Positions 2,319-39,692 of a DNA stretch of 64,000 nucleotides are shown here, in pieces (position 1 is the first letter of the stretch; every line of letters begins with the position of its first letter). A program made the position numbers and the translations under genes. This DNA is from a virus (Duplodnaviria > Heunggongvirae > Uroviricota > Caudoviricetes). Below the pieces are notes generated by a model, which was not told where the DNA came from, did no database searches, and saw only the letters and a program-made list of their open reading frames with translations. Location of the stretch: the IMG/VR virus record IMGVR_UViG_2675903278_000002. The stretch is one strand, 5' to 3'.

Positions 2319-2331
2319 TAACAACTTGTTT
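2319..2331. promoter_or_regulatory. Box A palindrome copy (consensus GAAAACAAnnTGTTT)
   Basis: tAACAACTTGTTT, 32 nt upstream of the nrdB ATG. Direct repeat CTTGTTTAAAC at 2300-2310 and 2325-2335. Confidence 0.55.
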
Positions 2332-2362
2332 AAACGCACCAAAAAAGAAAAAGGAAAAACAC

Positions 2363-3505
2363 ATGTCATATTCAACGTTCCGTTTGGGTGCTAATGATGC
2401 AACCAAAGAGCCTATGTTCCTCGGACAATCTGTCAACGTGGCACGTTACGATCAGCAAAAATACCGTGATTTTGAAAAGTTGATTGAACGTCAATTGTCT
2501 TTCTTCTGGCGGCCGGAAGAAGTTGATATTTCGAGCGATCGTATCGACTTCAACACGAAGCTGCGGGACCACGAACGTCACATTTTTCTGAGCAATCTCC
2601 GTTATCAAACGTTACTCGATTCAGTTCAGGGACGTAGTCCAAATGCAACGCTGCTGCCGCTTATCTCTATTCCTGAACTGGAAACGTGGGTTGAAACGTG
2701 GTCTTTCTCTGAGACTATCCATAGCCGCAGCTACACCCACATTATTCGTGGCATGGTGGACGATCCGAGCATTGTTTTTGACGGTATTGTTACGGATGAA
2801 GAAATCATCAACCGAGCGATCAGTATCTCTGCTGAATATGACAGGCTTTATGGGATGACCTGCGAGCGCCAGTCGTTAGGTGAGAAGGAATTTGAGCGTC
2901 TGTACGTAAATGAATATGGCTGGGAGCCATACCCTTTGCACCGTCAGCTTTTCCGCACGTTGGTGTCCATTAATGCGCTTGAGGCGATCCGTTTCTATGT
3001 AAGTTTTGCATGTACGTTTGCCTTTGGCGAACGGAAGTTGCTTGAGGGTAACACCAAAATTATGCGCTTTATTGCCCGTGATGAAGCTCTGCATTGCGAA
3101 GGAACTGAACGCATGATCCGCTTCATGCGTACCGGTCGCGAAGGTTTATTGTGGAAAGAGATTGCTGCTGATGAAGAAAACGTCATTTACGACACCATGA
3201 AATCAGTCGCCGAACAAGAAATGAACTGGGCAGACTATCTCTTCAAAGACGGTTCGATGATTGGTTTAAACGCGGATATTCTCAAAACCTATGTAAAATA
3301 CCGCACCAATCTGGCTATGAATCGTCTTGGCCTGAAGGCTTTATTTCCAGAGGTTACCACCGATCCGCTGGTCTGGATGAACAAGTGGTTGTTAACCGAC
3401 ACACTGCAAATTGCACCACAAGAGGCAGAGCAAAGCACATATCTGGTAGGTCAGATCGATTCTACCGTGGATAAGGCTTCTCTAAGCCAGTTTGCAGACC
3501 TGTAA
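2363..3505 (+). CDS. nrdB: Class Ia ribonucleotide reductase beta subunit
   Basis: Collinear with E. coli NrdB ([41 protein letters not shown]). Shares the leader GGAAAAACACATG. Confidence 0.95.
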
Positions 3506-3582
3506 ACCGATACAAAGCATTATGTGGCCTGGCAACGCTGGGCCACAATGGATCACAAGAATTAAGAAGGAACAAAACTAGC

Positions 3583-4452
3583 ATGAACTTTACCAAACTG
3601 ACTGACCACCTGAAACTTGCCACCGATCGACTCATTGGATTTAAGCCAGAACCATATGAGTTGCATGAAGGCCATGGTGTAGCCACTGAAAGTATTTACA
3701 AGATGGTCGATCAGTTTCATGAACTCTTCCAGCATCCGAGACGCGTTATGCCGACACCAGAGCTGCTTCGTCTCCGTGCAAGCCTGATTCATGAAGAAGC
3801 TGTAGTGGAAGGTATTCCAGCCGCAATGAATGGGGATATTGAGCAACTGCTGGATGCAATGGCCGACTTTTTATACGTTGGTGTTGGTACGATGGTCGCC
3901 ATCAAAGGTGGTATTTCTACCGGCATGACCTATTACACGCAGGAACAGAGCATTGATCGCTTTATGCAGACAATTTTTGTGCCCGGTAACACTGTTTTCG
4001 ATGATATGGCAATGCCATTTCAGGAAGCTCGTGAGGCGTCATGTATGCTCGAAGAGCTGGCAGATAAACTTGAGAACAAGACTGTTAAGGATTCTGAGCT
4101 GATTCAGGAACTGCGCCGTGTCATGAACAAAATCTATGTGGCGTGCATGATGACCTATCGACTGGCTGATTTCCTCGGTATCAATGTAGTCGAGCTGGTT
4201 GGCGAAATTCATCGGTCTAACATGACAAAATTATGGCCTGCTGATGTTGAGGAACGTCGCCAGGCTGTGGCCAACTGCAAATACGACTCTTCAGATCTGG
4301 GATTCCGCCATGCTGATGGCACCGATAAGATGATCGGTTTTCGAATTTCCGATGGAAAGATTCTGAAGTCTCCAACCTATAGTGATGTCGATTTATCCTC
4401 CTTTGTTGAGCAAGCTAAAGCCTCAGCAATGTACGGAATGATCAAAAAATAA
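3583..4452 (+). CDS. MazG-like all-alpha NTP pyrophosphohydrolase (tandem-domain)
   Basis: EExxE...D metal-binding pattern (LIHEEAVVEG...EQLLDAMADFLYV) and C-terminal EIHRSNMTKL typical of the MazG/HisE-like family. SD GAAGGA lies upstream. Confidence 0.5.
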   Translation: MNFTKLTDHLKLATDRLIGFKPEPYELHEGHGVATESIYKMVDQFHELFQHPRRVMPTPELLRLRASLIHEEAVVEGIPAAMNGDIEQLLDAMADFLYVGVGTMVAIKGGISTGMTYYTQEQSIDRFMQTIFVPGNTVFDDMAMPFQEAREASCMLEELADKLENKTVKDSELIQELRRVMNKIYVACMMTYRLADFLGINVVELVGEIHRSNMTKLWPADVEERRQAVANCKYDSSDLGFRHADGTDKMIGFRISDGKILKSPTYSDVDLSSFVEQAKASAMYGMIKK

Positions 4453-4454
4453 TT

Positions 4455-4471
4455 GTAGGTAGTTATCTATC
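4455..4471. promoter_or_regulatory. Box B palindrome-family copy (degenerate)
   Basis: GTAGGTAGTTATCTATC, 3 nt after the stop codon. Same core as the copy at 45037. Confidence 0.45.
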
Positions 4472-4515
4472 TGTGTATATTGCGTTGGCGCGTTAAATTT
4501 CTGAAACAACTATTC

Positions 4516-4548
4516 GTTTTTGGTGGCCTATGGCCACCATTTTTTTAT
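4516..4548 (+). terminator. Rho-independent terminator
   Basis: TGGTGGCC-tat-GGCCACCA followed by TTTTTTT. Confidence 0.8.
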
Positions 4549-4591
4549 CTGTCTGGTCTTGTTCTCTCAATAAATGTAAACTCACGCAATG

Positions 4592-4609
4592 AATAAGTGG
4601 TTACTTATC
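4592..4609. promoter_or_regulatory. Box B palindrome copy
   Basis: AATAAGTggTTACTTATC, 15 nt upstream of the thyA GTG start. Confidence 0.55.
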
Positions 4610-4623
4610 TTTGTGAGGTTTTT

Positions 4624-5727: not shown

Positions 5728-5728
5728 T

Positions 5729-8465: not shown

Positions 8466-9275
8466 ATGAGTTCGGTTGAAAATGTAATGACAAATGATGA
8501 TCTGGACGAGCTGACAGCCATGTTGCAATCACTTGATGAACCAGTAAAAAAAGCTGCACAGGTTGAAAATACTGATGATATTGACGATCTGCTGCTCGGC
8601 CTAGATGCTGGCGTAGCCATGAGTTCTGATGATGTTGCCGAAGAACTGTTCAATGAAGAAAAAGCAGGTGATTTCAGCTCTGCTTTAAATGAGTTGGAGT
8701 TAGCGCATGAGCCTATAAACGTAATTAACGCTGAAAGTGTTGAAGCTGCCGAAAACGAGCCAGAACAATTGGGATTTATTGAGGTTGAAGAGTGTGTTGA
8801 GGTTAATGATGAATTAAAAGTTCAACAGTCAAATGATAGCAATACAAATAAAAAAGCTCGTGCTGCAAGAGGTCCTCGTTTTACTTTAAGTGATAAAGAT
8901 GATTCGTTTTTCAATAAAGCGGGCTTAGAAAAAGATATTTTCTTAGACGCTTACGATAACGCGCCTGTCAAAGCAAAGGATAAGATATTAAACCTTCTTA
9001 ATTGGTTTAGCGGAGGTCCAGATATTAGTGTTTACACGGTAATTTCCATGAGACACCTTCTCACAGAAAAGAAGGCTACAAGTAATAGTATTAAGATTGC
9101 TTTAATGAGCAATCCAGAAAAACCGTATCCGCTTAACACTGCGTCAACTCAGGCTGGGCAAATGATGGCTGTATTTCCAGCGACAGGAATTGCCGTTAGA
9201 GGCGGTGGAAATCTAACATTGAACGAAGAATCACCGATCGTTAAGAAGTTTGTCGCGGAGTACACTATTGGATGA
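8466..9275 (+). CDS. Hypothetical protein with strongly acidic N-terminal half
   Basis: SD AAGGAG upstream. The first ~125 aa are D/E-rich (ENTDDIDDLLLGLD, SSDDVAEELFNEE). Confidence 0.55.
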   Translation: MSSVENVMTNDDLDELTAMLQSLDEPVKKAAQVENTDDIDDLLLGLDAGVAMSSDDVAEELFNEEKAGDFSSALNELELAHEPINVINAESVEAAENEPEQLGFIEVEECVEVNDELKVQQSNDSNTNKKARAARGPRFTLSDKDDSFFNKAGLEKDIFLDAYDNAPVKAKDKILNLLNWFSGGPDISVYTVISMRHLLTEKKATSNSIKIALMSNPEKPYPLNTASTQAGQMMAVFPATGIAVRGGGNLTLNEESPIVKKFVAEYTIG

Positions 9276-9350
9276 CGTTCCCCTACTGAAAATAAAGCCC
9301 ATAGAGAGCTTTATAGTGCTGGGTAAGCCAATCACATACCCAGCACCACA

Positions 9351-12537: not shown

Positions 12538-12554
12538 AGAAAACAACTTGTTTT
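12538..12554. promoter_or_regulatory. Box A palindrome copy
   Basis: AGAAAACAACTTGTTTT, 23 nt upstream of the TerB-like ATG. Confidence 0.6.
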
Positions 12555-13192: not shown

Positions 13193-13267
13193 TGACCGAA
13201 ATAGAGAGTTTGCACCTTTACGTTTAGCTTGCTCCCCTTTTATGCCACATCACAATAAAGCCAATAA

Positions 13268-13282
13268 GAAAACAACTTGTTT
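13268..13282. promoter_or_regulatory. Box A palindrome copy
   Basis: GAAAACAACTTGTTT, 18 nt upstream of ATG 13301. Confidence 0.6.
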
Positions 13283-13300
13283 AAGCATTAGGAAAAACAC

Positions 13301-13870
13301 ATGTGCAAGAAATGCAAAGCGATAGCTGATGAACAAAACGCCTTATTCGAAGAAATGGATGCTAATGAACTGGTCAAAATGTTAGCCATTCTTCGAGGAA
13401 TAGAAGACGTTTCCATATTTGAGAGAGTGGTTACAGCACTTAATTTTGAGTCCACCTTTGAAGAGCCAACTCAGGTTGTAGCTTTAGCACATCATTTCGG
13501 TGTTCATTATCTTGCTGAAAAAGAGCGCGCTGATAAGTTGCAGGCGACTTTGGATATGGTGAGCGAGACTCAACGAACTGATGACACTAACAAGAGTGAG
13601 GCGATTATTGCCAGCAAAGATCGTGAAATTGCTGGGCTTAAATCCTCTCTAACGATGTTGATGTCTGCGTTCAATCTTATGTCTTCTCAGGCGGGTTATA
13701 AAATGCCATCACTAAACAGCGATGATCCGATGGCCGTTCGTCAGCTTTTGGGAGCAATGGCCGACCAACTCGACGACACAAAGAGTCGGCTTGAAGACAT
13801 GATGCGTGAGTTAAGCCATCGACATAACCTCGCAACACAGCCACACAAAGCCTTTCAAAGCTCTAATTGA
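13301..13870 (+). CDS. Hypothetical protein
   Basis: 189-aa ORF with the shared leader GGAAAAACACATG. Confidence 0.55.
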   Translation: MCKKCKAIADEQNALFEEMDANELVKMLAILRGIEDVSIFERVVTALNFESTFEEPTQVVALAHHFGVHYLAEKERADKLQATLDMVSETQRTDDTNKSEAIIASKDREIAGLKSSLTMLMSAFNLMSSQAGYKMPSLNSDDPMAVRQLLGAMADQLDDTKSRLEDMMRELSHRHNLATQPHKAFQSSN

Positions 13871-14209: not shown

Positions 14210-14824
14210 ATGTTCGGGATGTCAATTACTCAATCAGATGGAAGTTTGTGGATGAGTCCAGAATTTACTCCGCAAAATCTGATTAATAAAGGGACAATGT
14301 CTACATCTAAAGGTTCTGTTTTTCAAACATCAATCCCATCAAACAAATCATGCTTTTTCTTCATAAAAAGCAGTAATAAGGCGAACATGATGTTTATTCA
14401 TGAGCATAGTAACGGATACAATGCTCTCAGATTGCATCAGGTAAATGGTAGCCCCGGAACAATAACAGTTTATGCTTTTTCTGATATGGTGTTACCACAT
14501 TCTGGCTATGGCATTGCCATGTATAACAGCGCAGGCGCAATGGTGTATCACGGTGAGATGATGCCCCTTGATGCGAAACTTATCACTATTTCTGACCCTC
14601 AATTTACAATAGATATGGGGTATCCATGTGCGGTAATGCCTGCTATGGTTGGGGTATATAACTATAGACGAACCGATTACGACAGACCTGTCTATGTAAC
14701 AATGACAGGTGCAACTGGAAACCAAGTATATAACGGTCAATGGTATTCCGGTAATGTCACATGGGATATTAAGAAGATTTATACAAACAAAATTCTGGTG
14801 ATAAATACCTCCAAGTATGATTAG
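14210..14824 (+). CDS. Hypothetical protein (AT-rich cassette)
   Basis: ATG lies 2 nt after the upstream stop. 204 aa. Confidence 0.5.
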   Translation: MFGMSITQSDGSLWMSPEFTPQNLINKGTMSTSKGSVFQTSIPSNKSCFFFIKSSNKANMMFIHEHSNGYNALRLHQVNGSPGTITVYAFSDMVLPHSGYGIAMYNSAGAMVYHGEMMPLDAKLITISDPQFTIDMGYPCAVMPAMVGVYNYRRTDYDRPVYVTMTGATGNQVYNGQWYSGNVTWDIKKIYTNKILVINTSKYD

Positions 14825-14887
14825 CCAATGCCTTTATTTGAAGGATTGCCTGTTTATTTCTATTTAGTACCTTTTCATTTTTGAAAT

Positions 14888-16613: not shown

Positions 16614-16633
16614 TAGGTAAATACTTACCTAAT
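16613..16633. promoter_or_regulatory. Box B palindrome copy
   Basis: ATAGGTAAatacTTACCTAAT, starting within the methylase stop (TGATAGG). Confidence 0.55.
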
Positions 16634-17759: not shown

Positions 17760-17897
17760 GCGCTACAAATCCTTCTGCATGAATAAATAAAGGCCATAAC
17801 TTATGGCCTTAAATAAATTGTTTTCTACATTTTCTTATTTGTGAAAATAAACCAGCACTTGGTAGTGCTTATGTAACAGCAAAGAAGAGAAAAACAC

Positions 17898-18353
17898 ATG
17901 AGTAACAAAATCGAAAATCCCGTAGTTCTCATTCACAAGCGCGAGAACCACGACTCCTATGCGGTGGCGATCACCAATGGGAGTCACGATTTTTACGATG
18001 GCCTGCTAATGGCCTCAGTGTCGCCTGATGAGGCAGACAACTCTTTTGCCGTCTTCGCTATGGTTGGTTACTACATGGCTGCTGAAATTGAGAAGTTGCG
18101 GGCGCAGAGAGACGCATTAGCGGCGGAGAATGCAGCCCTGAAAGAATCTGAGCGAGCATTCGATGCGATGTGTGCCGAGGAACACGGAGATAATTGGGTT
18201 AGCGAATTAACGGAGACTCCAGCCACCGATGCTTTTCTGGCTGAAGTACGTGCGCAGGGCGTGGAGATGTTTGCTGAGTGCGCATACACACTTGAACATC
18301 ATGATCACGCAGTAGCTTTTGCCGCTGAGCTTCGTACAGGAAATAAACAGTGA
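17898..18353 (+). CDS. Ead/Ea22-like protein
   Basis: Coiled-coil KLRAQRDALAAENAALKE plus ETPATDAFLAEVRAQGVE, which I recall from lambdoid Ea22-like proteins. Shared leader GAGAAAAACACATG. Confidence 0.5.
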   Translation: MSNKIENPVVLIHKRENHDSYAVAITNGSHDFYDGLLMASVSPDEADNSFAVFAMVGYYMAAEIEKLRAQRDALAAENAALKESERAFDAMCAEEHGDNWVSELTETPATDAFLAEVRAQGVEMFAECAYTLEHHDHAVAFAAELRTGNKQ

Positions 18354-20837: not shown

Positions 20838-20857
20838 TACTGTATGAATAAACAGTA
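20838..20857. promoter_or_regulatory. LexA (SOS) box
   Basis: TACTGTATGAATAAACAGTA matches CTGT-N8-ACAG and overlaps a TATACT -10-like hexamer. Confidence 0.85.
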
Positions 20858-20875: not shown

Positions 20876-21265
20876 ATGGGCTTCCCTTCTCCTGCGGCGG
20901 ATTATGCAGAGAGCCGTATTTCTCTTGATCAGCAACTAATCAGACATCCTTCAGCGACCTACTTCATGCGGGCAGCTGATAGTCATCATCGTGAGGGAAT
21001 ATTACAGGGTGCATTGCTGGTGGTCGATTCCTCACTTACCCCGGTTGATGGTTCTCTGCTTGTATGCGCTCTGGATGGGGAATATCGCGTAAAAAGATAC
21101 CGGAAGTACCCACGTCAGCATCTGGAGGATTTAAGAACCGGTAAGAAGGAAGCATTGCCAAAGGATGACGATGGATGCACGGGCAGCAATGCCGTGTTTG
21201 GTGTGATCACTCACATTATCAACGACGCAAGAAGTGGCGAGTTTGATGATTGTCCCGTGATGTAG
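20876..21265 (+). CDS. umuD: UmuD'-like protein (pre-truncated UmuD homologue, P1 HumD-like)
   Basis: Begins MGFPSPAADY..., which matches E. coli UmuD from its Cys24/Gly25 cleavage site onward. HPSATYF is conserved, and the Ser (ADS) and Lys (VKR) positions are retained. Confidence 0.85.
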   Translation: MGFPSPAADYAESRISLDQQLIRHPSATYFMRAADSHHREGILQGALLVVDSSLTPVDGSLLVCALDGEYRVKRYRKYPRQHLEDLRTGKKEALPKDDDGCTGSNAVFGVITHIINDARSGEFDDCPVM

Positions 21266-21301: not shown

Positions 21302-21302
21302 A

Positions 21303-24677: not shown

Positions 24678-24692
24678 AAAACAATTTGTTTT
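24678..24692. promoter_or_regulatory. Box A palindrome copy
   Basis: AAAACAATTTGTTTT. The extended context AACAATTTGTTTTCTGCCTT is shared with the copy at 29301. Confidence 0.6.
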
Positions 24693-24727
24693 CTGCCTTT
24701 TGTTGATGGAGATAATAAACCACATAA

Positions 24728-24743
24728 GAAAACAACTTGTTTT
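24728..24743. promoter_or_regulatory. Box A palindrome copy
   Basis: GAAAACAACTTGTTTT, 12 nt upstream of ATG 24756. Confidence 0.6.
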
Positions 24744-24755: not shown

Positions 24756-25055
24756 ATGTTGAACATTACCCAAGCCTACCAGGTGGCATTGATCAGCTCA
24801 TCTCATACATCAGAGGAAGATGCTCGCCGATTCATGATCGCAAGCAATGAGCTGGATTGGGTTTCACAAATTGAGTACGGTTGCATTGTCCACGCCGGGT
24901 TACAGGACGATGACTGGAAAGATGAGTTGCGTCGATATGGTATATCCGAGGGCGCGATTGCGAACATTCAGAAAGTACTTGATGTAGGCTTTGACTCTGT
25001 ACATTTTGATTGTGGTGCACCGGTCGTTGAAGGGCTAGAGTGCTGGCAATGGTAA
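24756..25055 (+). CDS. Hypothetical protein
   Basis: ATG 24756 has GGAG 8 nt upstream. 99 aa. Confidence 0.5.
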   Translation: MLNITQAYQVALISSSHTSEEDARRFMIASNELDWVSQIEYGCIVHAGLQDDDWKDELRRYGISEGAIANIQKVLDVGFDSVHFDCGAPVVEGLECWQW

Positions 25056-25999: not shown

Positions 26000-26099
26000 C
26001 GGTTGCAACTTATTGATAATGGCGGTCACAATTTGATTCTTTTCTATAAGAACCCGTTGATCGCCACTACTCCCCTCCCATACCAGCAATCACATCATT

Positions 26100-26870
26100 A
26101 AATATCAATAGGTTATGGTTGTTTATACAAATAAGAAAACAACTAAATAACAGATCAACGAAACGTCAACGCTTTCACCCGATTTGGTCTAAAAAATTGA
26201 CGTTTTCACACATCACTTCTTATACCCGTAACTCTACGCAGCAGACATCGCCACAGCGTCCAATTTTCACCACAGACGACCCAACACACTACCAACAAAA
26301 ACACACGCTCAAAATCGCTCCCGTTGCGTTACACAACCATATAAACAACTTATTTTCAGGCATAACAAAACAACTAAATAACACACATGCCATTTCCAAA
26401 AACAACCAACCTCTTTATGGCAGGCTACCGAAAAGACCCACCTCTTCTCCCCAGGCTACCGGACAACCAACCTAACTTTCACAGGCAATCCGAAAACATT
26501 CATACGCGCGATACCCACGACACGCCATTACCCAAACAGCGAAGAAACACCAGAATCACTGAACCCCCAACGAAGCCTGTAACCGCAAGGCTTCTCTCAA
26601 TCCCAAAAGACACGAAACAGAACAATCACGGGAAACGCCATTACCCAACACACGAATAACTACAAAAGCCCTTCACGCACTCCAGACAAACAACTCAAAC
26701 ACAATAACGAAAGGAATCGCCCACCTGCCATTACTCCATACACGGAGAAGAACAATCACCAAAACGACGAGAACACCCCATAGAAGAACCACCGCAAAAC
26801 GAACGAAACCACATACACCGACAGAGAGAACAACACACCCAATTCACCAACAGAATTAGTCGCCGTATAG
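26100..26870 (+). other. A+C-skewed, G/T-poor non-coding tract
   Basis: By hand count, about 100 G in 780 nt, and 70-80% A+C in the lines I counted. Track ORFs here translate to low-complexity T/P/Q/N/H sequence. Confidence 0.6.
26421..26510 (+). repeat. Three tandem ~30-bp repeats (CAGGCTACCGnAnAAnCCnACCT...)
   Basis: Units start at 26421, 26452 and 26482. A related triplet lies at 30416-30500. Confidence 0.6.
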
Positions 26871-26981
26871 AACGTTCTGGAAGGAGTGAGTGTTAACGTC
26901 CATAGAGAGGTTGAGACAGATAAAACACGAATAAAACACAACATGTATAGCGAAGAAGCCAGGTATGTATAAGTGGGGAGA

Positions 26982-27007
26982 GAAGGAGGGGTGTCGCCTC
27001 CTTTTTC
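26982..27007 (+). terminator. Rho-independent terminator closing the A+C-rich tract
   Basis: AAGGAGG-ggtgtcg-CCTCCTT followed by TTT. Confidence 0.6.
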
Positions 27008-27069
27008 GTATTTATTCAACTCCTGATTTTACCCCCCGTAACACCCCTACGGTCAGCCTTCGGTCCATA

Positions 27070-27205
27070 CAGGGAAAAGGCTGCATCCCGCTACAGAAAC
27101 GGCTGGGTTGCCTTCGGGGAACGGCTGGAGGTTTTCAGGGAAACGGTCGAGTTGCCTGTGTGGATTTCGGGAAAAGGCTCGATGCCGGTTCAGGAACGGT
27201 GGCGT
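27070..27205 (+). repeat. Iteron-like array: six direct repeats (G/C)GGAAA(A/C)GGCT
   Basis: The GG anchor of each repeat falls at 27079, 27101, 27123, 27145, 27176 and 27198, giving spacings of 22, 22, 22, 31 and 22 bp. Confidence 0.7.
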
Positions 27206-27342
27206 ACCGGTATAGCGTGAGGGAGAGTTGCGGCTGTCCACCTGTAATGTGCGGGAAGAAGAGAGGCGCTCACGTGCAGGCGAACTTACTTACCGCTGGA
27301 TTCCCTCTGAATGCCCAGCTACAGCGTAATTGTGCCAGACAG

Positions 27343-27489
27343 TCAGCGGGTCACAATCGATTTCAGTAGGTTTTCGGGGAGAAGAAAATTCTGCCCACCA
27401 GCCCTGCGGCGCGCGTAGAGCAGAATATCGTAAATACTGGTTCCGTGTCGTTCCCGGATACTCACTACCCAGCCTGGCTTTCCCGACAT
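27343..27489 (-). CDS. Possible 48-aa basic protein
   Basis: Internal ATG has AAAGGA 4 nt upstream and gives MSGKPGWVVSIRERHGTSIYDILLYARRRAGGQ... It is divergent from the 27583 gene. The track start at 27546 lies inside Box A. Confidence 0.3.
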   Translation of the reverse strand: MSGKPGWVVSIRERHGTSIYDILLYARRRAGGQNFLLPENLLKSIVTR

Positions 27490-27536
27490 AAAATCCTTTT
27501 CCGCCTTTGTCTTATTGCGATAATAACACCAACAAG

Positions 27537-27551
27537 TAAACAACATGTTTA
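27537..27551. promoter_or_regulatory. Box A palindrome copy
   Basis: TAAACAACATGTTTA, preceded by GATAATAACACCAACAAG (a shared -10-like context). Confidence 0.6.
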
Positions 27552-27582
27552 GACGTTATATAAACGAAGTGAGGATGAAGAG

Positions 27583-27801
27583 ATGATTAAGATGCCTGTG
27601 ACGGTTGAGGTGTGGGGCGTGGATTCCCTGGCTGAGTGTCTGGATGCAGTGGGGCCGGAGTTGTACCGCAAGTTGTGGTCGTTCGTCCCGGCAGAAGGGG
27701 AATCGCCCAAAGGGAAGGATATCTGGCACCTGCTGAGTGAAGATGAAAAGCGGGAGCTGGTGGACGCGGTACACAGCGAGTTCCCGGGCGACGAAGATTA
27801 A
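27583..27801 (+). CDS. Small acidic hypothetical protein (cassette 1)
   Basis: 72 aa. GAGGA lies 7 nt upstream. Confidence 0.5.
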   Translation: MIKMPVTVEVWGVDSLAECLDAVGPELYRKLWSFVPAEGESPKGKDIWHLLSEDEKRELVDAVHSEFPGDED

Positions 27802-27806
27802 GAGTG

Positions 27807-27830
27807 AGGCCACCAGCACGGTGGCTTTTG
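27807..27830 (+). terminator. Rho-independent terminator
   Basis: GCCACC-agcac-GGTGGC followed by TTTT. Confidence 0.7.
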
Positions 27831-27912
27831 TCGCTATTAACCTCCGGGCAGCGCAGCACCGTAACGATATACTTTGTGGCCGTTTTCTTACTGGTATTGT
27901 TTACGCAATTCA

Positions 27913-27927
27913 GAAAACAACATGTTT
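27913..27927. promoter_or_regulatory. Box A palindrome copy
   Basis: GAAAACAACATGTTT, 12 nt upstream of ATG 27940. The ~65-bp upstream context is duplicated at 28352-28411. Confidence 0.6.
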
Positions 27928-27939
27928 AAGGATTGCGTT

Positions 27940-28269
27940 ATGTTTGCAAATATCGACATCAACCAAATCAAGAAAATGACTCAAAAAGAGTTTGACCAGT
28001 TTTATGAGTTAGAAGGTTGGTCTTCCACTCTGATCAATTCGCGGTGGGTGCTTGAGCTGATGACTCGTGATGACGCACCTGCTTTGATGATTTGCGACAT
28101 GGGTGAAGATGCTGACTTTATGGATATGAGCGAATTTTGTGTGGACACATACAACCGCAGCCAGAAGTACTACTTCACATGCGATAGCGAAAATGACGTG
28201 ATTTCTAAGGTCTATCTTCACCTCGTCCAGCATTGGGACGTTCAGGAGTTTCTTGAAGTATTCGAGTAA
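27940..28269 (+). CDS. Small acidic hypothetical protein (cassette 2)
   Basis: ATG 27940 has AAGGA 7 nt upstream. 109 aa. Confidence 0.5.
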   Translation: MFANIDINQIKKMTQKEFDQFYELEGWSSTLINSRWVLELMTRDDAPALMICDMGEDADFMDMSEFCVDTYNRSQKYYFTCDSENDVISKVYLHLVQHWDVQEFLEVFE

Positions 28270-28304: not shown

Positions 28305-28396
28305 CTATAGCCGCAGGGAAGAACCTGCATATCGCTCATGCACCTGATCAATATGCTTTGTAGCCGTTTTCTTACTGGTATTATTTACGCCATTGA

Positions 28397-28411
28397 GAAA
28401 ACAAGTTGTTT
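28397..28411. promoter_or_regulatory. Box A palindrome copy
   Basis: GAAAACAAGTTGTTT, 11 nt upstream of ATG 28423. Confidence 0.6.
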
Positions 28412-28422
28412 ACGGAGTTGTG

Positions 28423-28734
28423 ATGAAAAAATCATTGGTTCTTGGTCTGGACAAAGACCAGAAGAGAAAAGAGAAGCCTGCGCTGGTTGCTCAATTAACT
28501 TTGCTGGACATCGTTGCCAATGGAACCTCTATTCGTCTGTTCCGTGAAACAGCGGTGTCTTTCGATAAAAACACCTTTACTCGTTATGTAATGAATGTTC
28601 GTCGCCAGCGTGGAAAAGGCTGGGTGGCATTTCAAAGAATGTGGCCGGAACATCAGCTCGAACTGGCTTTGATGGAAGTTAACCGCGTGGCCCAGCAAGA
28701 GATTCAGAGAGCATCAGTGATGGCAATAGCCTGA
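28423..28734 (+). CDS. Small basic hypothetical protein (cassette 3)
   Basis: ATG 28423 has GGAG 5 nt upstream. 103 aa. Confidence 0.5.
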   Translation: MKKSLVLGLDKDQKRKEKPALVAQLTLLDIVANGTSIRLFRETAVSFDKNTFTRYVMNVRRQRGKGWVAFQRMWPEHQLELALMEVNRVAQQEIQRASVMAIA

Positions 28735-29300: not shown

Positions 29301-29315
29301 ATAACAATTTGTTTT
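29301..29315. promoter_or_regulatory. Box A palindrome copy
   Basis: ATAACAATTTGTTTT. Confidence 0.55.
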
Positions 29316-29373
29316 CTGCCTTATCTGATTTGTGAAAATGATTTCACTGAAGCAACTTAATAAGGAAACCATC

Positions 29374-29748
29374 ATGGGACTTGATATCTATATCGAGACA
29401 CAGCCTAAAAACGATCTGAATAACGAGGCATCCAGAAAGCAGGTTGCTTACTTCCGTAAGTTCAATGCGCTCGTTGGGTGGATGGAGCGCAACGTAGGTG
29501 AAGTCGAAAATTGTGAGCTTTTAGAATTAACGATGAATGACATTTGTTTTCTGAAGGCTCATTTGATGCACATAAACGAAAGTAATTGCGAAGAGTACTT
29601 GCCTACCCGGGAAGGTTTTTTCTTCGGCAGTCAGGAGTACGATGAAGGTTACTGGCATGATGTGGGGCAGTTGAAAGAGCTTGTGGAAGATCTGATTAAG
29701 AACCACGACTTTCACAATAACAGACTGACCTTCTGCGCCTGGTGGTAA
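29374..29748 (+). CDS. Hypothetical protein (cassette 5)
   Basis: ATG 29374 has AAGGA 7 nt upstream. Begins MGLDIYIETQ... 124 aa. Confidence 0.5.
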   Translation: MGLDIYIETQPKNDLNNEASRKQVAYFRKFNALVGWMERNVGEVENCELLELTMNDICFLKAHLMHINESNCEEYLPTREGFFFGSQEYDEGYWHDVGQLKELVEDLIKNHDFHNNRLTFCAWW

Positions 29749-29921: not shown

Positions 29922-30049
29922 TTAAATGACTTTTAATAACCGAAGGTTAGTTTGAAACCTGGCTATCAACTTCCAGAACCTTTCTTGTGTATTCAGCCTG
30001 TATTAACTTCTTTTATGCCTTATCTACACTGCGATAATTACACCAACAA

Positions 30050-30064
30050 GAAAACAACATGTTT
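30050..30064. promoter_or_regulatory. Box A palindrome copy
   Basis: GAAAACAACATGTTT, preceded by GATAATTACACCAACAAG. Confidence 0.6.
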
Positions 30065-30083
30065 ACGCAGTGAGGATATGCTC

Positions 30084-30415: not shown

Positions 30416-30500
30416 CAGGCTAAAAACACCAACCTCTTACCTCCAGGCAACCGACAAACCCACCTGTTCCCGTCCGGCTACCGCAACTTTCCACTTTGAC
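30416..30500 (+). repeat. Three tandem ~29-bp repeats related to those at 26421-26510
   Basis: CAGGCTAAAAACACCAACCT.., CAGGCAACCGACAAACCCACCT.., CCGGCTACCGCAACTTTCCAC. Units start at 30416, 30444 and 30474. Confidence 0.55.
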
Positions 30501-30534
30501 GCCTTATTCGTACAACGATAATTAACACCAACAA

Positions 30535-30549
30535 GAAAACAATTTGTTA
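30535..30549. promoter_or_regulatory. Box A palindrome copy
   Basis: GAAAACAATTTGTTA, preceded by TTGACG-n15-GATAAT (sigma70-like). Confidence 0.6.
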
Positions 30550-30569
30550 TTTACGATAAGGAATTAATC

Positions 30570-31052
30570 ATGAATTTTATCGCTACTGTAAACGCACCCG
30601 CACATGGCAATATCGCTGTAACGTTCTCTGACATTGAAAAACGAGTACTTGGTGCATGGCGCGACAATGAGACGGTAGAACTGTCAGCACAAGAAAAATG
30701 CATTATTGCACGCGACATCATTGGCAATCGTCGTTACTCGCGGGTATTTGAGAAAGCGTATGTGGTAAATTCTGGGTTCGGAACGTTCGTCTTTCCGGTG
30801 CGCTCCGGGCGATTCTGCCAGTCCAAGCTGATTGAGTTCGCTACGCAGATTTCTGTCTGGATTAAAACTCAATCGTCGTTCAAATTTTCCGACGATGAAG
30901 CAGTATCGCAGGGGATGCGGATCGCCAACAATGCGATTAAATGCAAAAACATTACGTATACCGCTGGCGTTGATACATGGAAACTGTTTTGCGCTAACTT
31001 TATGCTGAATGTATACGCAAGCAACCGCATCCACATCCTTGATGGCGTGTAA
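30570..31052 (+). CDS. Hypothetical protein (cassette 7)
   Basis: 160 aa. SD AAGGA upstream. Confidence 0.5.
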   Translation: MNFIATVNAPAHGNIAVTFSDIEKRVLGAWRDNETVELSAQEKCIIARDIIGNRRYSRVFEKAYVVNSGFGTFVFPVRSGRFCQSKLIEFATQISVWIKTQSSFKFSDDEAVSQGMRIANNAIKCKNITYTAGVDTWKLFCANFMLNVYASNRIHILDGV

Positions 31053-33419: not shown

Positions 33420-33944
33420 TCAAAAAGGCAAAATTCGTTCAACCCAATCGAACAAAACAACTATTTTTCTACCGTTCTCGACACGTAGTGTAACCTGACA
33501 AGCATCTGCGCCTGCTGACACCCCCTCAATTTCACGGCCATCCGCCATGTACACCCTTATAGATTTGTTTGCTTTGTAGGCTTGGTTGCAAATTGCAAAA
33601 AAATCGCGGCGTGATGGCCGATTATCGACATAATCAGGGTGAACTGTTAGTCGACCTTTGAAATCGTGAGCGATACTGTCAACCACACCTGATTCAATTG
33701 TACTAATGCGTTCAAGTGGGAGCCTTATACGATTTTCTTTGTCAAAAGGGGCTGGGCAAAGGTCAACTTTGTTACGAGATGGCATGAGGCCATAAACGTA
33801 CATGCAAAACGCCTGGCCATCTTCGAGAGTGACCCTTACAGGAATTTGTTCTCTGCGCCAGAACATCAGTAGTTTTTCAACGTTAGTGTAATCTCGCGGC
33901 CAGAGTTCAGCTTGGATACCGTAGGTAATATCTTTGGTTGTCAT
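33420..33944 (-). CDS. Hypothetical protein (two beta-rich halves, possibly Sm-like)
   Basis: Start uncertain (33944 or 34022). Segments VRVTLEDGQAFCMYVYG and IRVYMADGREIEGV...VTLRVENGRKIVVLFDWVERI. Confidence 0.45.
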   Translation of the reverse strand: MTTKDITYGIQAELWPRDYTNVEKLLMFWRREQIPVRVTLEDGQAFCMYVYGLMPSRNKVDLCPAPFDKENRIRLPLERISTIESGVVDSIAHDFKGRLTVHPDYVDNRPSRRDFFAICNQAYKANKSIRVYMADGREIEGVSAGADACQVTLRVENGRKIVVLFDWVERILPF

Positions 33945-36325: not shown

Positions 36326-36345
36326 ATAAGTAAGTGATTACTTAG
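36326..36345. promoter_or_regulatory. Box B palindrome copy in the divergent helicase/ParB-like intergenic region
   Basis: ATAAGTAAgtgaTTACTTAG. Confidence 0.55.
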
Positions 36346-36362
36346 TGGATTGTAGCAATAAA

Positions 36363-37043
36363 ATGGATGTAAAAATCACGATTTTGCAGGTTGATGTTGC
36401 CAACCTTCGCCCGAATACCTGGAACACCAATTCGGTTGGTGCGCAGAATTTTGAAAAACTGAAAGGTTCTATCGAAAAATTGGGCTTTTTTAAGCCAATT
36501 TTGGCTCGTGAACTTGAAGATGGATTTTTTGAAATCCTCGGCGGTGAACATCGCTGGCGTGCTGCTATTGAGCAAGGAATTTCAACGGTTCCGGTGCTTT
36601 CTGTGGGCAAAATTAGCGATGTCGTAGCTAAACAGATGTCACTGGTGGACAACGAGCGATACGGTGAAGACGACCAAATCGCATTGCAACGCTTCATTGA
36701 AGAAATTCAGTCAGAACTTGACTATCAACTGTCTGAAATCGCCCCGTATGACGACGAAATCTCGATGGTTTTAGCAAAAGAGGCGGCAATCGACCTTGAA
36801 GCACTGGAGGCGTTGTCTCGTGGTAGTGATGAGCCTGTCGATACCGACAAACGAGAGAAAACCGAACGTGTGGGTGCGGAACATCAGACCATGCGCTTCA
36901 AAGTAACTTTCGATGCGTCAGATCGTGTTGCAGAAACCATAAAAAACATCATCAAAGAGCAGGCTATTAACACCGGTAATGAAATGGAGAACGCTGGTGA
37001 GGCTCTGGTGTGGCTGGTCGACTACTACAAGGAGCGTATGTAA
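36363..37043 (+). CDS. ParB/Srx-fold (ParB N-terminal domain) protein 1
   Basis: PILARELEDGFFEILGGEHRWRAA carries the GxxHR ParB box. The start is either ATG 36363 or GTG 36345. Confidence 0.7.
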   Translation: MDVKITILQVDVANLRPNTWNTNSVGAQNFEKLKGSIEKLGFFKPILARELEDGFFEILGGEHRWRAAIEQGISTVPVLSVGKISDVVAKQMSLVDNERYGEDDQIALQRFIEEIQSELDYQLSEIAPYDDEISMVLAKEAAIDLEALEALSRGSDEPVDTDKREKTERVGAEHQTMRFKVTFDASDRVAETIKNIIKEQAINTGNEMENAGEALVWLVDYYKERM

Positions 37044-37711
37044 TGACCAAAAAGTTTGAAATCGTATATCGCGACCCGGCAGATCTTATTCCCTATGAGA
37101 TGAATGCCAAAAAGCATGATGAACAGCAGATCAGAGATTTGGCCGCAGCCATTAAAAAGCGCGGATTTGACCAGCCAATTACGGTCGATAAGAACGACGT
37201 AATTATTACTGGCCACGGCCGCCGTGAGGCTGCAATTTTTGCTGGACTTGAGCGCGTACCGGTTATTGTTCGTGATGATCTGAGTGATGACGAGGTTCGT
37301 GCGAAGCGCCTTGAAGATAACCGACTTGCCAGCATTGATTACGATGCAATTAAGCTACAGAAAGAGCTTGAGTCGCTTGTTCTGGACGATATTGAGGTTT
37401 TCGGCTTTGAAGAGCGTGAGTTGAATGTTCTCGTTGGCAGTATGACAGAAGAAATGGACACCGACTCGCTAGTTATCGATCTTGGCGAAGAAACTAAACG
37501 ACAGAAGGATGAACACACCGAGATCAGTCGTGAAGTTGCAGCGGAAGAAGTACGTGTTGTCGACGTATTGGGCTTTAAAACGCTCCCTGCTGGCTCTGCC
37601 ATTGTTGTTGGTGATTTGCTTGCCCATATGGAAGAAATGACGGGAGAAAGCGGGGTAGACGCATTTGTGGCATATGCGGAGAAGATCTCTTCCGGGGAGA
37701 TGGCTGCATGA
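37043..37711 (+). CDS. ParB-like nuclease-domain protein 2
   Basis: TAATG coupling with AAGGAG upstream. Motifs QPITVDKNDVIITGHGRREAA and VPVIV. Confidence 0.7.
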   Translation: MTKKFEIVYRDPADLIPYEMNAKKHDEQQIRDLAAAIKKRGFDQPITVDKNDVIITGHGRREAAIFAGLERVPVIVRDDLSDDEVRAKRLEDNRLASIDYDAIKLQKELESLVLDDIEVFGFEERELNVLVGSMTEEMDTDSLVIDLGEETKRQKDEHTEISREVAAEEVRVVDVLGFKTLPAGSAIVVGDLLAHMEEMTGESGVDAFVAYAEKISSGEMAA

Positions 37712-38373
37712 GCAAATACATCATCAACGTATCGTTTCAGACACGCGTAAATAAAACCACGCGCACGTTGGAAATCGCTGAGTCGTTCGGGCTTGGCCTG
37801 GACGAAAAAGAGTGGACGCTTTACGACAATCTGGAGCTGGAAGTGAAGCAGGGCGATGTGGTGTACATCACCGGCCAATCCGGTTCCGGCAAATCCGTTG
37901 TGCTGCGCGAGTTGCAACGACAGATGAAGGATGAAGGGCTGTCTGTAGCCTCCATCGATGATTTTACCTTCGATAATGAGGTTAACGTCATCGATCAGTT
38001 GGGCAAAACGACCAGTGATGCGCTTGGGTTGTTATCTATGGCTGGTCTGAACGATGCATATCTGTTTGTTCGCAAGCCTTCTGAAATGTCAGACGGCCAG
38101 AAATATCGTCTCAAGATTGCCAAACTGATTGAGTCAGGCGCTAAAGTATGGGCTGCTGACGAGTTCGGCGCTGTTCTCGACCGTGTAACCGCTCAGGTTG
38201 TGGCGTCTAACCTCCAGCGTGCCGCTCGAAAGGTTGGTGCGACGGTAATGGTGGCGACGACTCACGAAGACCTGAAGAACGCGCTGCGCCCTGATATGCA
38301 GATCACCAAGCACTACAAAGAACGCGTGAAGGTGGAATATCACAATGGTAGTCATGATGAGGTCCATTCATGA
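37708..38373 (+). CDS. Soluble ABC-type ATPase
   Basis: Walker A GQSGSGKS, signature MSDGQKYR, Walker B VWAADEF, H-loop TTHE. ATGA overlap with the upstream gene. Confidence 0.75.
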   Translation: MSKYIINVSFQTRVNKTTRTLEIAESFGLGLDEKEWTLYDNLELEVKQGDVVYITGQSGSGKSVVLRELQRQMKDEGLSVASIDDFTFDNEVNVIDQLGKTTSDALGLLSMAGLNDAYLFVRKPSEMSDGQKYRLKIAKLIESGAKVWAADEFGAVLDRVTAQVVASNLQRAARKVGATVMVATTHEDLKNALRPDMQITKHYKERVKVEYHNGSHDEVHS

Positions 38374-39260
38374 CGGACATCATCATTAAACGCTACCGCC
38401 CTGAAGAGTTTCCGCGTCATCTGGACTTTCTGGAGCGAATGACTGTTACAAAGGGAACTGTAGAGGACTGGCACGCTCTTAAGTCGCTTCACTACAAAAC
38501 AGACGGCAAACCTTTCGCGCCAACTTACTATCGCTGCGAACTTGATGACCGTCTGGTGGGCGTCGTGGTTATGGCTTACCCGAAACTACTGTTGGCACCT
38601 CGCCACCGCATGTTTCCTAAGTTGAAACCAACCACTAATACCACCGTGGCTAACCAGTACTGGGGTCGGTACGTGAATAACAACTTTGCGGTGATCAGTC
38701 GCTCAGTTGTGGATACTCAGTATCGTGGCGTAGGCGTCTCTTATAGAATGATTAACCTGGTTAGCAGGATGCATGACCGGCCAATCATTGAGATCCAGTC
38801 CTCGATGAGCAAATACAATCCCTTCGCCATGAAAGCAGGGTTTAAGTTCATCCGCCCTGAGCGACCGAAGAGCTATGAAAGTGCACTGCGTGTGTTCCAG
38901 CGCCATTTCCGCTCCGACCCGGGTGATAACGAGGCGATCGTCAAAGAGTTGTTCGCTATGAGCGAGTCTCGTCGTCGCCGTGCGCTGCGCGATTTGGTGG
39001 CGGACTACCATAAGAACAGTTCCCTGGCAAAAGCTGGGCGGAATCGTGGCACGACGATTCAGGACATTGCCGACAGTCTGGTGGACGAGGCCAGCATTGT
39101 GAAGCTGCTCAAGGACATTCACAACCTGAGCTTTACGTCTCCGTTGTATGGTGTGTACCGAAACCCTGACTTTGGCCGTCGACTGCCTGACACGCTGCCA
39201 CTGCTGGCATTCGACAAACAACCTTTGGATAAACCGTTAGAAATTGCTTTACCGGCATAA
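38370..39260 (+). CDS. Hypothetical protein with GNAT-like acetyltransferase core
   Basis: ATGA overlap with the upstream gene. VDTQYRGVGVSYRMI resembles GNAT motif A (Q/RxxGxG/A). Confidence 0.45.
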   Translation: MTDIIIKRYRPEEFPRHLDFLERMTVTKGTVEDWHALKSLHYKTDGKPFAPTYYRCELDDRLVGVVVMAYPKLLLAPRHRMFPKLKPTTNTTVANQYWGRYVNNNFAVISRSVVDTQYRGVGVSYRMINLVSRMHDRPIIEIQSSMSKYNPFAMKAGFKFIRPERPKSYESALRVFQRHFRSDPGDNEAIVKELFAMSESRRRRALRDLVADYHKNSSLAKAGRNRGTTIQDIADSLVDEASIVKLLKDIHNLSFTSPLYGVYRNPDFGRRLPDTLPLLAFDKQPLDKPLEIALPA

Positions 39261-39269
39261 GGATTTGCC

Positions 39270-39536
39270 ATGACGTTAACCGACAAACAAAAGGACATCA
39301 TCAAAACGCTCAATCTCGGTTATGAGCGAGGTCATCTACTTGACCTGGACGAATTGCTTGAAGTTTTGCCGTACAAGACAACCAAGCAAAGTATCCAGTT
39401 CTCAATTCGCGCTCTGATAAAAAAGGGGCTGGTGGAGAAAGGGCATACGCGCCAACGCAGTGACAATCGCTATCACCGCCGGACTCTTGGGTTAACCACT
39501 TTAGGTCGAGCCAAAGCGAAGTTACTGGTGATGTAA
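39270..39536 (+). CDS. Small winged-helix (MarR-like) DNA-binding protein
   Basis: 88 aa, with TKQSIQFSIRALIKKGLVEK. Confidence 0.5.
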   Translation: MTLTDKQKDIIKTLNLGYERGHLLDLDELLEVLPYKTTKQSIQFSIRALIKKGLVEKGHTRQRSDNRYHRRTLGLTTLGRAKAKLLVM

Positions 39537-39558
39537 TCGGTCTGGGAGCTTATTTAAA

Positions 39559-39637
39559 GACCTGCATCTGTATATATAAATAATAAGTAACTTATTAAAT
39601 ATATACGGAAGCAGGCTTCGTAAGACATGCCAGACCT
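39559..39637. repeat. Long AT-rich hairpin element, copy B
   Basis: GACCTGCATCTGTATATATAAATAATAAGT-a-ACTTATTAAATATATACGGAAGCAGGCT, plus the conserved CCAGACCT. The centre contains a Box B-like AATAAGTAACTTATT. Confidence 0.65.
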
Positions 39638-39651
39638 AATTAAACACCCCA

Positions 39652-39666
39652 GAAAACAAGTTGGTT
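39652..39666. promoter_or_regulatory. Box A palindrome copy (degenerate)
   Basis: GAAAACAAGTTGGTT. Confidence 0.5.
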
Positions 39667-39676
39667 AGCAGATGCA

Positions 39677-39692
39677 GTAAACAAGTTGTTTT
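39677..39692. promoter_or_regulatory. Box A palindrome copy
   Basis: GTAAACAAGTTGTTTT, 39 nt upstream of the terS ATG. Confidence 0.6.

Follow-up and report, generated by a model that had tools for sequence, protein, structure and literature searches.

Box A, an oriented near-palindrome repeated across SSU5-type phage-plasmids, as a candidate operator of a genome-wide negative-control regulon

The stretch of viral DNA considered here, the 64,000 nucleotides (nt) of IMG/VR record IMGVR_UViG_2675903278_000002 that we call the window, is most of a phage-plasmid of the SSU5 type, and it carries many copies of Box A, an oriented near-palindrome of 17 bases, AGAAAACAAnTTGTTTA. We propose, giving the proposal about even chances of being right, that Box A is the DNA operator of a genome-wide negative-control regulon in elements of this type. 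A phage-encoded protein would bind the double-stranded box and block either the binding or the escape of RNA polymerase. Some 15-20 transcription units would in this way be kept silent in the plasmid prophage, including those of nrdB, the helicase, cobT, a TciA-like gene, many small early genes and the terminase operon, while the parA operon, placed behind the same site, would be held at a moderate, autoregulated level. An operator in DNA was one of two possibilities put forward in the original prediction, and it is favoured here too because of the fixed gap between box and -10 hexamer, the inverted copies found on the non-transcribed side of promoters, their mirrored arrangement, the spacings of 51 and 25 base pairs (bp), the floor level of the transcripts concerned and the parallel with a second palindrome, Box B.

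An oriented element placed by promoters

Box A is far more frequent than chance would allow. In the window, GAAAACAANNTGTTT is found seven times without mismatch, for an expectation of 0; the looser 13-mer AAACAANNTGTTT, at one mismatch or less, gives 31 strand-matches where 2.8 are expected; and the oriented 17-mer AGAAAACAANTTGTTTA, at two mismatches or less, marks 15 distinct sites where 0.07 are expected, a count reached by none of 100 shuffles. The 13 coordinates first listed for full copies, from 2319 to 39677, all hold within 1-2 nt. An exact-pattern scan of IMG/VR returned SSU5-like contigs mixed with chance single matches.

The core of the element is palindromic over 13 bp and has the symmetry of AAAACAA-N-TTGTTTT, with one base at the centre and not two. 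A position table was made from 68 copies in four non-redundant genomes: the window, SSU5, pJN2-26 and a divergent Klebsiella quasipneumoniae plasmid (hereafter Kqq). Nearly invariant, and all on the same strand, are an A at -9, a G at -8 and an A at +7. The G at -8 is found in 41 of 43 leader copies with no mirrored preference for C at +8, the inverted copies carry the same AG...A asymmetry as the leader copies, and identity within the core reaches at least 40 of 43 at nearly every position in the leader copies.

Class 1, with 43 of the 68 copies, lies in leaders, the AG...A strand being the coding strand. A recognisable -10-like hexamer (GATAAT, TATTAT, TATTGT or GAAAAT, often with TGn before it) is found in front of 27 of these, and 20 of the 27 have the 15-mer starting exactly 12-13 nt downstream of it. 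Since sigma-70 transcription starts about 7 nt after the -10, the box would extend approximately from +6 to +20. The predicted start then falls a few bases 5′ of the box, in keeping with the earlier suggestion that transcription begins at the box or just before it. The distance from box to ATG is much looser, 10-91 nt in the four genomes, and a tie of the boxes to predicted promoters rather than to start codons is supported. Between the end of a leader copy and the Shine-Dalgarno sequence there are 0-30 nt, many copies being directly adjacent to it. The promoters themselves have a good -10, often TGn-extended, and a poor -35.

Class 2, with 22 copies, is the same oriented element on the opposite strand. 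Fourteen of these copies stop 2 nt short of the conserved GCC in a promoter of the form TTTTnnGCCTT-N11-(TGn)GATAAT; they cover approximately -45 to -31 and abut its -35 side. In the window the copies at 17810, 24678 and 29301 are of this kind, and this is where the original prediction, which had every box in the 5′ leader of a gene, must be amended: 24678 and 29301 are indeed full copies, but they are on the other strand and upstream of the promoter rather than in the leader of the next gene, and what had been noted as a degenerate copy at 17811 is a full one, at 17810, with the same inverted placement. The interval between box and start codon, predicted as 11-58 nt, is 10-39 nt for the leader copies of the window and 63-73 nt for the upstream copies, measured from the end of the box. 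Some inverted copies are past intrinsic terminators, that at 29301 by 15 nt and that at 24678 by 40 nt. Placed upstream of the promoter, and in some cases past a terminator, the 14 copies would not be found in leader RNA. As for a leftward promoter serving the inverted copies, the search gave only a GATAAG, at a 9-nt gap and without the final T, which is not convincing.

In both classes the AGA end of the box points to the promoter core. When a promoter is doubly occupied, the centres of its two boxes are 51 bp apart in every genome that has both positions filled: 24678/24729 in the window, 93113/93164 in Escherichia phage Cyrano, 88318/88369 and 93661/93712 in SSU5, 77333/77384 in Kqq and 10300/10351 in Yersinia pestis pMT1. 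In front of the small terminase gene the two boxes have a spacing of 25 bp in all cases.

Expression in the lysogen is in line with this placement, as can be seen in the supplementary table of PMC9928086, which gives RNA sequencing data for each Cyrano gene in E. coli LF82. For a prophage median of 9.8 normalised reads, the first genes after boxes have a median of about 7: terS 7.1, helicase 21, cobT 7.8, CYRAN_58 5.7, nrdB 12.9, the TciA-like gene 7.0, CYRAN_87 7.1, CYRAN_93 6.3, CYRAN_101 7.5, CYRAN_103 5.0, CYRAN_105 12.8, CYRAN_106 12.2, CYRAN_108 5.7, CYRAN_110 6.7 and CYRAN_111 25.5 (PMC9928086). The exception is the parA operon, with CYRAN_28, 29 and 30 at 50, 89 and 55 (PMC9928086). 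That operon apart, box-preceded genes are as silent in the lysogen as the structural genes. The same study found that Cyrano is induced by ciprofloxacin, and it named CYRAN_45 as the putative repressor (PMC9928086).

The element has been kept through considerable divergence. Between 24000 and 31000 the window is 95-97% identical to Cyrano (pLF82), CMS-2020a and PhiR41_1, with Klebsiella relatives and Salmonella phage SSU5 as more distant matches. Counted at two mismatches or less to the 15-mer, there are 19 copies in Cyrano, 21 in SSU5, 15 in pJN2-26, 19 in the divergent K. quasipneumoniae plasmid and 7 in pMT1, and Box A is kept at orthologous intergenic sites in elements of E. coli, Salmonella, Klebsiella and Yersinia. 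When orthologous intergenic regions are aligned, the module formed by hairpin, box and promoter is kept next to unrelated ends of neighbouring genes; in some regions the downstream gene is itself unrelated despite the kept module. A cassette of the window made up of a promoter and a gene (27552-27928, with a 72-amino acid (aa) open reading frame at 27583-27801) is absent from Cyrano (at 95800), and its junction falls inside Box A, the central triplet being inverted (ACA vs TGT) between the window, AAAACAACATGTTTA, and Cyrano, AAAACATGTTGTTTA. Small genes appear to be exchanged by recombination, with the boxes as joints.

Relatives that have no dispersed boxes help to see what accompanies them. 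The SSU5-like plasmid of Moellerella wisconsensis has ParA, the small protein encoded after it (its putative ribbon reading IKSRTVSMEDE), a homologue of CYRAN_123 and the CI-like gene; it has no FljA-like gene, no CYRAN_37 and no dispersed Box A. Upstream of its parA there is just a half-copy, AAGAAAACAATATATTTT (AAGAAAACAA), with two AAATAACAAGGC repeats, and promoters of the GCCTT...GATAAT family occur in this plasmid without the box. The comparison was extended with IMG/VR loci anchored on the large terminase gene (TerL). An FljA-like gene is present in all sampled lineages that bear Box A, even where its identity is down to 26-43%, and a clade of about 81% TerL identity (L221-L226) has neither. 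The FljA-like gene, CYRAN_37, 38, 61, 62 and 34 are among the genes that are common to Box A genomes and missing from Moellerella. Such co-occurrence favours a functional link between dispersal of the box and the FljA-like gene, or another gene of this list, and it corresponds to essentially one evolutionary split. pMT1, which has no module of ParA and small protein and yet keeps seven boxes, was considered as a natural experiment and rejected as uninformative, because its boxes and their flanks are almost identical to those of SSU5 and there has probably been too little divergence for decay.

Candidate binders and competing readings

If Box A is read in DNA, the leading candidate for its binder would be CYRAN_29, followed by CYRAN_37. 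CYRAN_29, a protein of 119 aa encoded outside the window, comes after ParA (CYRAN_28, Walker-type, with matches to MipZ, AAA_31 and CbiA), and its gene overlaps the parA stop codon. Box A stands in front of parA in four genomes, as does a half-copy in the Moellerella plasmid, which is otherwise free of the box, and the parA operon, which alone among box-preceded operons is active in the lysogen, has what looks like the signature of an autoregulated repressor. Two segments of CYRAN_29, I-SRTMS-EDE and FTRSDVIRAAI, are invariant, the rest of the protein falling to 49% identity in the K. quasipneumoniae element; this invariance matches that of the box, and we count it in favour of CYRAN_29. The AlphaFold model of the monomer has an extended stretch at 41-47 and helices at 48-60 and 70-84, with a predicted local distance difference test (pLDDT) score of 64. 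Searches for a ribbon-helix-helix fold in Pfam, in PDB by sequence and profile, and with Foldseek on the monomer model gave nothing significant, and neither did hhalign against ParG, omega and CopG. A centromere-like cluster of half-sites was looked for as well: no 300-bp window has more than six half-sites, and what is found is single palindromes or pairs. CYRAN_37 (71 aa, weak winged-helix matches) and CYRAN_123 (88 aa, a weak match to the LexA DNA-binding domain) are both conserved and both at floor level in the lysogen.

Other proteins were considered and rejected. CYRAN_45, the CI-like helix-turn-helix protein encoded outside the window, has Box B, GGTAAGTGCTTACC, upstream of its own gene, and no Box A. 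The LexA-like S24 protein (20876-21265) is UmuD-like, has no DNA-binding domain and lies behind a LexA box. CYRAN_117 has no counterpart in the K. quasipneumoniae element, where Box A is kept.

Several observations weigh against an operator read in DNA. The asymmetric ends of the box would be unusual for the operator of a simple homodimer. Sixteen of the 43 leader copies have no recognisable -10; these sit in short gaps of apparent operons, for example between nrdA and nrdB or before the helicase gene, where promoter occlusion is impossible, so that a roadblock or an effect at the RNA level would be needed. A consensus promoter scan calls none of the Box A promoters, which have no canonical -35, and all promoter positions and transcription starts given here are deduced from sequence. 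A promoter of the same family without a box, at 14869 in the window, is also silent in the lysogen; taken with the promoters that the scan does not call, it means that silence could reflect a missing activator instead of repression at the box. Finally, the resemblance of CYRAN_29 to a ribbon-helix-helix protein is one of sequence pattern and gene position, and this small protein is present in Moellerella, without the dispersed boxes.

Reading Box A in RNA was the other half of the original prediction, which had in mind an AU-rich hairpin in the 5′ untranslated region, with control of the type exerted by T4 RegA. Neither feature is retained. By itself the box has a folding energy of -0.7 to -1.0 kcal/mol, its hairpin is part of the minimum-energy structure in one of nine leaders, folding z-scores of leaders are mostly near 0 (range -1.3 to +1.3), and a third of the copies are inverted; as the centre of the palindrome is a single base, there is no loop for a hairpin. 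With these energies and no Rfam match within the window, a stable RNA hairpin or riboregulator is rejected. As for RegA, tblastn in Cyrano, SSU5 and pJN2-26, with a T4 RegA query, gave a best E value of 0.97, that is, no homologue, and the box ends 10-91 nt before the ATG and not over it.

An operator in RNA that needs no hairpin is another matter, and it stays a live rival because the element encodes a full-length protein of the FljA family (33420..33944, - strand, 174 aa). Its Cyrano orthologue matches PF03614 with an E value of 1e-80, and the structure model shows two tandem Hfq/Sm-like domains. This protein, we may suppose quite tentatively, could bind Box A single-stranded in its RNA form, AACAAGAAAACAACUUGUUUAAGGAG: within the first 20 or so nucleotides of the message, the A-rich and U-rich halves (AGAAAACAA / UUGUUUA) would be bound by this protein with two Hfq-like domains, which would block entry of the 30S subunit at the adjacent Shine-Dalgarno sequence and destabilise the message, in the manner of FljA on fliC mRNA or of T4 RegA. 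The A-tract and U-tract make-up of the box, the closeness of leader copies to the Shine-Dalgarno sequence and the 16 leader copies that have no promoter nearby would all fit, as would the presence of the FljA-like gene in every sampled Box A lineage and its absence from the Box A-free Moellerella and L221-L226. FljA is described as preventing translation of fliC mRNA (PMC2652032; bioRxiv 10.1101/2025.10.27.684867), and the FljA-like gene is expressed in the lysogen, with 18 normalised reads overnight in lysogeny broth (LB) and log2 values of 7-8 in other conditions (PMC9928086). Against this, 22 of the 68 copies are inverted, 14 of them abutting the upstream side of a promoter with no usable leftward -10, and the fixed spacings of 51 and 25 bp have no rationale in RNA. 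Lineages with an unchanged box have FljA-like proteins of anywhere from 26 to 100% identity, no Box A precedes the FljA-like gene, the box-preceded messages are at the floor of the structural genes and not merely reduced, and the co-occurrence of gene and box, as said above, amounts to essentially one split.

The fliC leader itself gives an ambiguous answer. In Salmonella and Citrobacter it has ATCAAGTTGTAAT four nt before the Shine-Dalgarno sequence and reads ...CCCAATAACATCAAGTTGTAATTGATAAGGAAAAGATCATG, sharing CAAGTTGT with Box A; we estimate at approximately 0.003-0.02 the chance of such an 8-mer in a leader of 62 nt. However, the spacing within ATCAA...TTG is 4 nt in E. coli K-12 vs 1 nt in Salmonella, so the resemblance to Box A may be coincidental. 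Transfer of a plasmid with the E. coli-type FljA makes motile E. coli non-motile, and in S. Typhi it prevents fliC translation (PMC2652032). That FljA acts in both hosts in spite of the difference between their leaders suggests that its true site may lie elsewhere.

It has also to be asked whether the box is simply a part of the promoter: a conserved initial-transcribed or upstream element spread with a mobile promoter cassette, its leader perhaps enhancing translation, or a component of a class of early or middle promoters that are silent as long as their phage activator is absent. We consider this improbable, in spite of the module of about 65 bp, TTTTnnGCCTT-N11-(TGn)GATAAT-N12-box, that is kept before unrelated genes, of the poor -35 of Box A promoters, of the silence of their box-less relative and of the cassette gained or lost with its junction inside a box. 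The GCCTT element, moreover, sits at what we take to be the position of the T4 MotA box. The promoter family is nevertheless found in Moellerella without the box, which makes the box separable from the promoter, and sixteen copies have no -10 nearby; a 13-bp palindrome conserved to the extent seen here has far more specificity than an enhancer would require, and activators rarely bind at +6 to +20. Even less probable in our view, and indeed hardly to be expected, is a host protein conserved in Enterobacteriaceae and Yersinia, nucleoid-associated or Hfq, that would bind A-tract DNA or RNA and couple the early genes to the state of the host. The box is invariant across elements of E. coli, Salmonella, Klebsiella and Yersinia whose regulators have diverged, and the element of a Morganellaceae host is without it. 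But some 20 copies per 100 kb on one replicon, the parA promoter included, follow the pattern of an element-encoded regulator, and we know of no E. coli regulator consensus that Box A matches.

Readings in DNA and in RNA need not exclude each other. One can imagine, with more doubt than confidence, a dual switch in which the tandem-Sm protein of the FljA family acts on some 20 early messages, through an unstructured operator of A-tract and U-tract at their very 5′ ends, while the same sequence, in DNA, is perhaps read by the partition protein. Were it true, plasmid maintenance, lysogeny and early gene translation would be linked.

The copies of the window and neighbouring signals

Position 1 of the window lines up with Cyrano at about 68 kb, and window 39.7 kb with position 1 of Cyrano, at the small terminase gene. 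A first block contains nucleotide-metabolism genes, a second (24-31 kb) small genes that each have their own promoter, and a third leftward genes, including a UvsW-like helicase and the FljA-family gene; after this leftward block come two ParB-like genes, and then the structural operon. In the first block, the box AGATAACAACTTGTTTA (2316..2332, + strand) is a leader copy between the terminator of nrdA and the start of nrdB (2363), with orthologues at Cyrano 70325 and SSU5 70218. The + strand copy at 12538..12554, in the leader of a TciA-like gene (12578), is 6 nt after a TTGACC-17-TTATGT promoter (orthologues at Cyrano 80548, pJN2-26 17794 and Kqq 72397), and a perfect 17-mer at 13267..13283 (+) is found 5′ of the gene at 13301 (SSU5 81744, pJN2-26 18509, Kqq 73861). 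The inverted copy at 17810..17826 (-) lies directly 3′ of the hairpin GGCCATAAcTTATGGCC and abuts the -35 side of the extended -10 promoter TGTGAAAAT, before the gene at 17898; its module is kept in Cyrano, SSU5 (85601) and pJN2-26 (21772), where the flanks do not align.

In the second block, the inverted copy at 24678..24694 (-) is a perfect 15-bp palindrome, AAAACAATTTGTTTT, and abuts the upstream side of GCCTT-N11-GATAAT (24695-24716). The GATAAT (24711..24716, + strand) is placed between this box and that at 24727..24743 (+), a leader copy that begins 12 nt after the hexamer and is directly followed by the Shine-Dalgarno sequence GGAG and the ATG at 24756. A degenerate inverted copy, TAAACAACTTATTTT, at 26342..26358 (-), lies in a G-poor tract and is of doubtful function, with better copies at the orthologous sites of SSU5 (90739) and pJN2-26 (25868). 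It had rightly been called degenerate, at 26343, but 26133 and 26366, listed with it, are left half-sites only (AAAACAACTAAATAA) and are not counted. Leader copies on the + strand follow at 27535..27551, 12 nt after TGCGATAAT (27519-27524), for the gene at 27583; at 27912..27928, 13 nt after TGGTATTGT (27895-27900), with the Shine-Dalgarno sequence directly next; at 30049..30065, 12 nt after a second TGCGATAAT (30033-30038); and at 30534..30550, 13 nt after GATAAT (30517-30522), with the ATG at 30570. A perfect 17-mer at 28396..28412 (+) comes 13 nt after TGGTATTAT (28379-28384), with the ATG at 28423. The GATAAT-type hexamers of the original prediction are all present, at 27519, 30033 and 30517, as is the TTGACG-n15-GATAAT at 30497. 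The inverted copy at 29301..29317 (-), past the terminator GGCGCGtaaacCGCGCC-ATTTTCTT, abuts the promoter GCCTTATCTGATTTGTGAAAAT (29318-29339). The last two copies, at 39651..39667 and 39676..39692, both on the + strand, form the 25-bp pair 5′ of the small terminase gene (39732), which is kept in Cyrano (56/81), SSU5 (55/80) and pMT1 (19734/19759).

Other features accompany these copies. The ribosome-binding region AGGAAAAACACATG is nearly identical at many starts, for example 2363, 12578, 13301 and 17898, which suggests that leader cassettes were copied together with the boxes. The annotated start of Cyrano CYRAN_108 (29338 in the window) overlaps a putative -10 (GAAAATG); an in-frame ATG 36 nt further on, at 29374, with AAGGAAA before it, looks like the real start. 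The G-poor, A/C-rich tract of the + strand extends over 26100-27000 (GC skew -0.08 and AT skew +0.20 over 26001-28000); within it are inverted TTGACG/CGTCAA motifs and, at 26133 and 26366, half-sites of Box A, AAGAAAACAACTAAATAAC, and the tract is annotated in Cyrano as the hypothetical gene CYRAN_103, which is at the expression floor. The signal TATATAAATA(n)TAYGGRAGCWRGGYT is found 60-100 bp 5′ of the small terminase gene (39575-39625 in the window). It recurs in the IMG/VR loci L153, L184, L208 and L221-L226 (at about 9250-9330), so that its conservation extends to the clade without Box A; a late promoter and a site related to packaging are two possible identities for it. A LexA-box-like sequence, TACTGTATGAATAAACAGTA, at 20838-20857, is just 5′ of the gene for the 129-aa S24 peptidase (UmuD-like, 20876-21265). 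The Cyrano orthologue has TACTGTATGTGTATACAGTA upstream, and its expression, at 148, is among the highest of prophage genes in the lysogen.

The original prediction opposed Box A to a mutually exclusive Box B. A probable Box B, ATAGGTAAGTACTTACCTAT, does exist, and there are no sites common to both. It is a dispersed palindrome, (A)TA-GGTAAGTACTTACC-TAT, with 7-17 copies per genome. Copies with 1-2 mismatches are found in the window at 16616-16629, 9431, 11646, 41620 and 62042, and perfect ones at 42606 in Cyrano, at 2034, 27477 and 78712 in SSU5 and at 14624, 44029 and 90502 in pJN2-26; one of the perfect copies is found 32 bp before the CI-like helix-turn-helix gene. The spacing of its half-sites seems to depend on the lineage, being 0 bp here, with GTAAGT-N4-ACTTAC in Kqq and TAAGTA-N6-TACTTA in Moellerella, the N4 and N6 forms resting on three exact copies each. 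Box B may be a CI-like operator or a late-promoter element. At Cyrano 57426 a promoter of the family that carries Box A has a palindrome resembling Box B at about the same place downstream, which, together with the Box B placed before the CI-like gene, suggests that the two boxes are alternative operator modules.

Significance and known systems

Phage-plasmids of the SSU5, pHCM2 and pMT1 type abound in clinical E. coli, Klebsiella, Salmonella, Enterobacter and Yersinia pestis, and the marker genes used here are present in about 800 plasmid records; the circuits that govern their lysis-lysogeny decision and their maintenance are essentially uncharacterised. Full-text searches on SSU5, pHCM2, pMT1 and phage-plasmid regulation gave no description of Box A, nor of any operator or regulon in such elements. 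Box A and Box B together would provide a concrete wiring diagram, with some 20 promoters, one switch and a handful of candidate regulators, and Box A would also mark the boundaries along which small early-gene cassettes are exchanged. If it is the FljA-family protein that binds, a regulator that was known only from flagellar phase variation would be given a fold and a much larger set of targets.

The FljA-fliC system of Salmonella is indeed one with which Box A may be compared, with a protein of the same family encoded in the element, what would be a target in a short leader just 5′ of the Shine-Dalgarno sequence and the CAAGTTGT core in common. But FljA has one known target where there would be about 20 here, a third of the boxes would probably be missing from RNA, and the protein is just about 34% identical to plasmid-borne copies of fljA. 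The operators of T4 RegA likewise are AU-rich, lack structure and occur in many early-gene leaders; they overlap the AUG, however, whereas Box A ends at least 10 nt upstream, is at a fixed distance from the -10 and is found on both strands.

There are also known systems where one short site is repeated in DNA. The P1 C1 operators and the L5 gp71 stoperators are of this sort, with approximately 15-30 copies in temperate phage genomes of 50-100 kb. As with Box A, genes that stay silent in the lysogen have these sites at their promoters and in the short gaps between them, the sites are asymmetric, with an orientation linked to the direction of transcription, and P1 too is a phage-plasmid. Their sequences are unrelated to that of Box A and are not palindromic, in contrast with the near-palindrome found here; the CI-like repressor gene goes, in the present elements, with the other palindrome, Box B; and copies of Box A can mirror each other across a promoter, at a constant distance of 51 bp. 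The partition proteins that double as global repressors, KorB acting at OB in RK2, omega in pSM19035 and ParG in TP228, make a second family of precedents. The likeness extends to a core 13-bp palindrome with a single central base in some 12-20 copies, to one class of sites next to the -35 and others further away, to a copy before the partition operon, and to a candidate binder that is a small protein encoded after a Walker-type ParA. By contrast, no ParB or ribbon-helix-helix fold was found for this candidate in Pfam, PDB, Foldseek or hhalign comparisons, there are here no heptad arrays or obvious centromere cluster, and the targets of Box A are mostly early and replication genes of the phage rather than plasmid maintenance genes. 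Judged by its sequence and arrangement, Box A thus appears to be of a familiar kind, with precedents in P1 C1, the L5 stoperators and KorB/omega, set in an unusual geometry.

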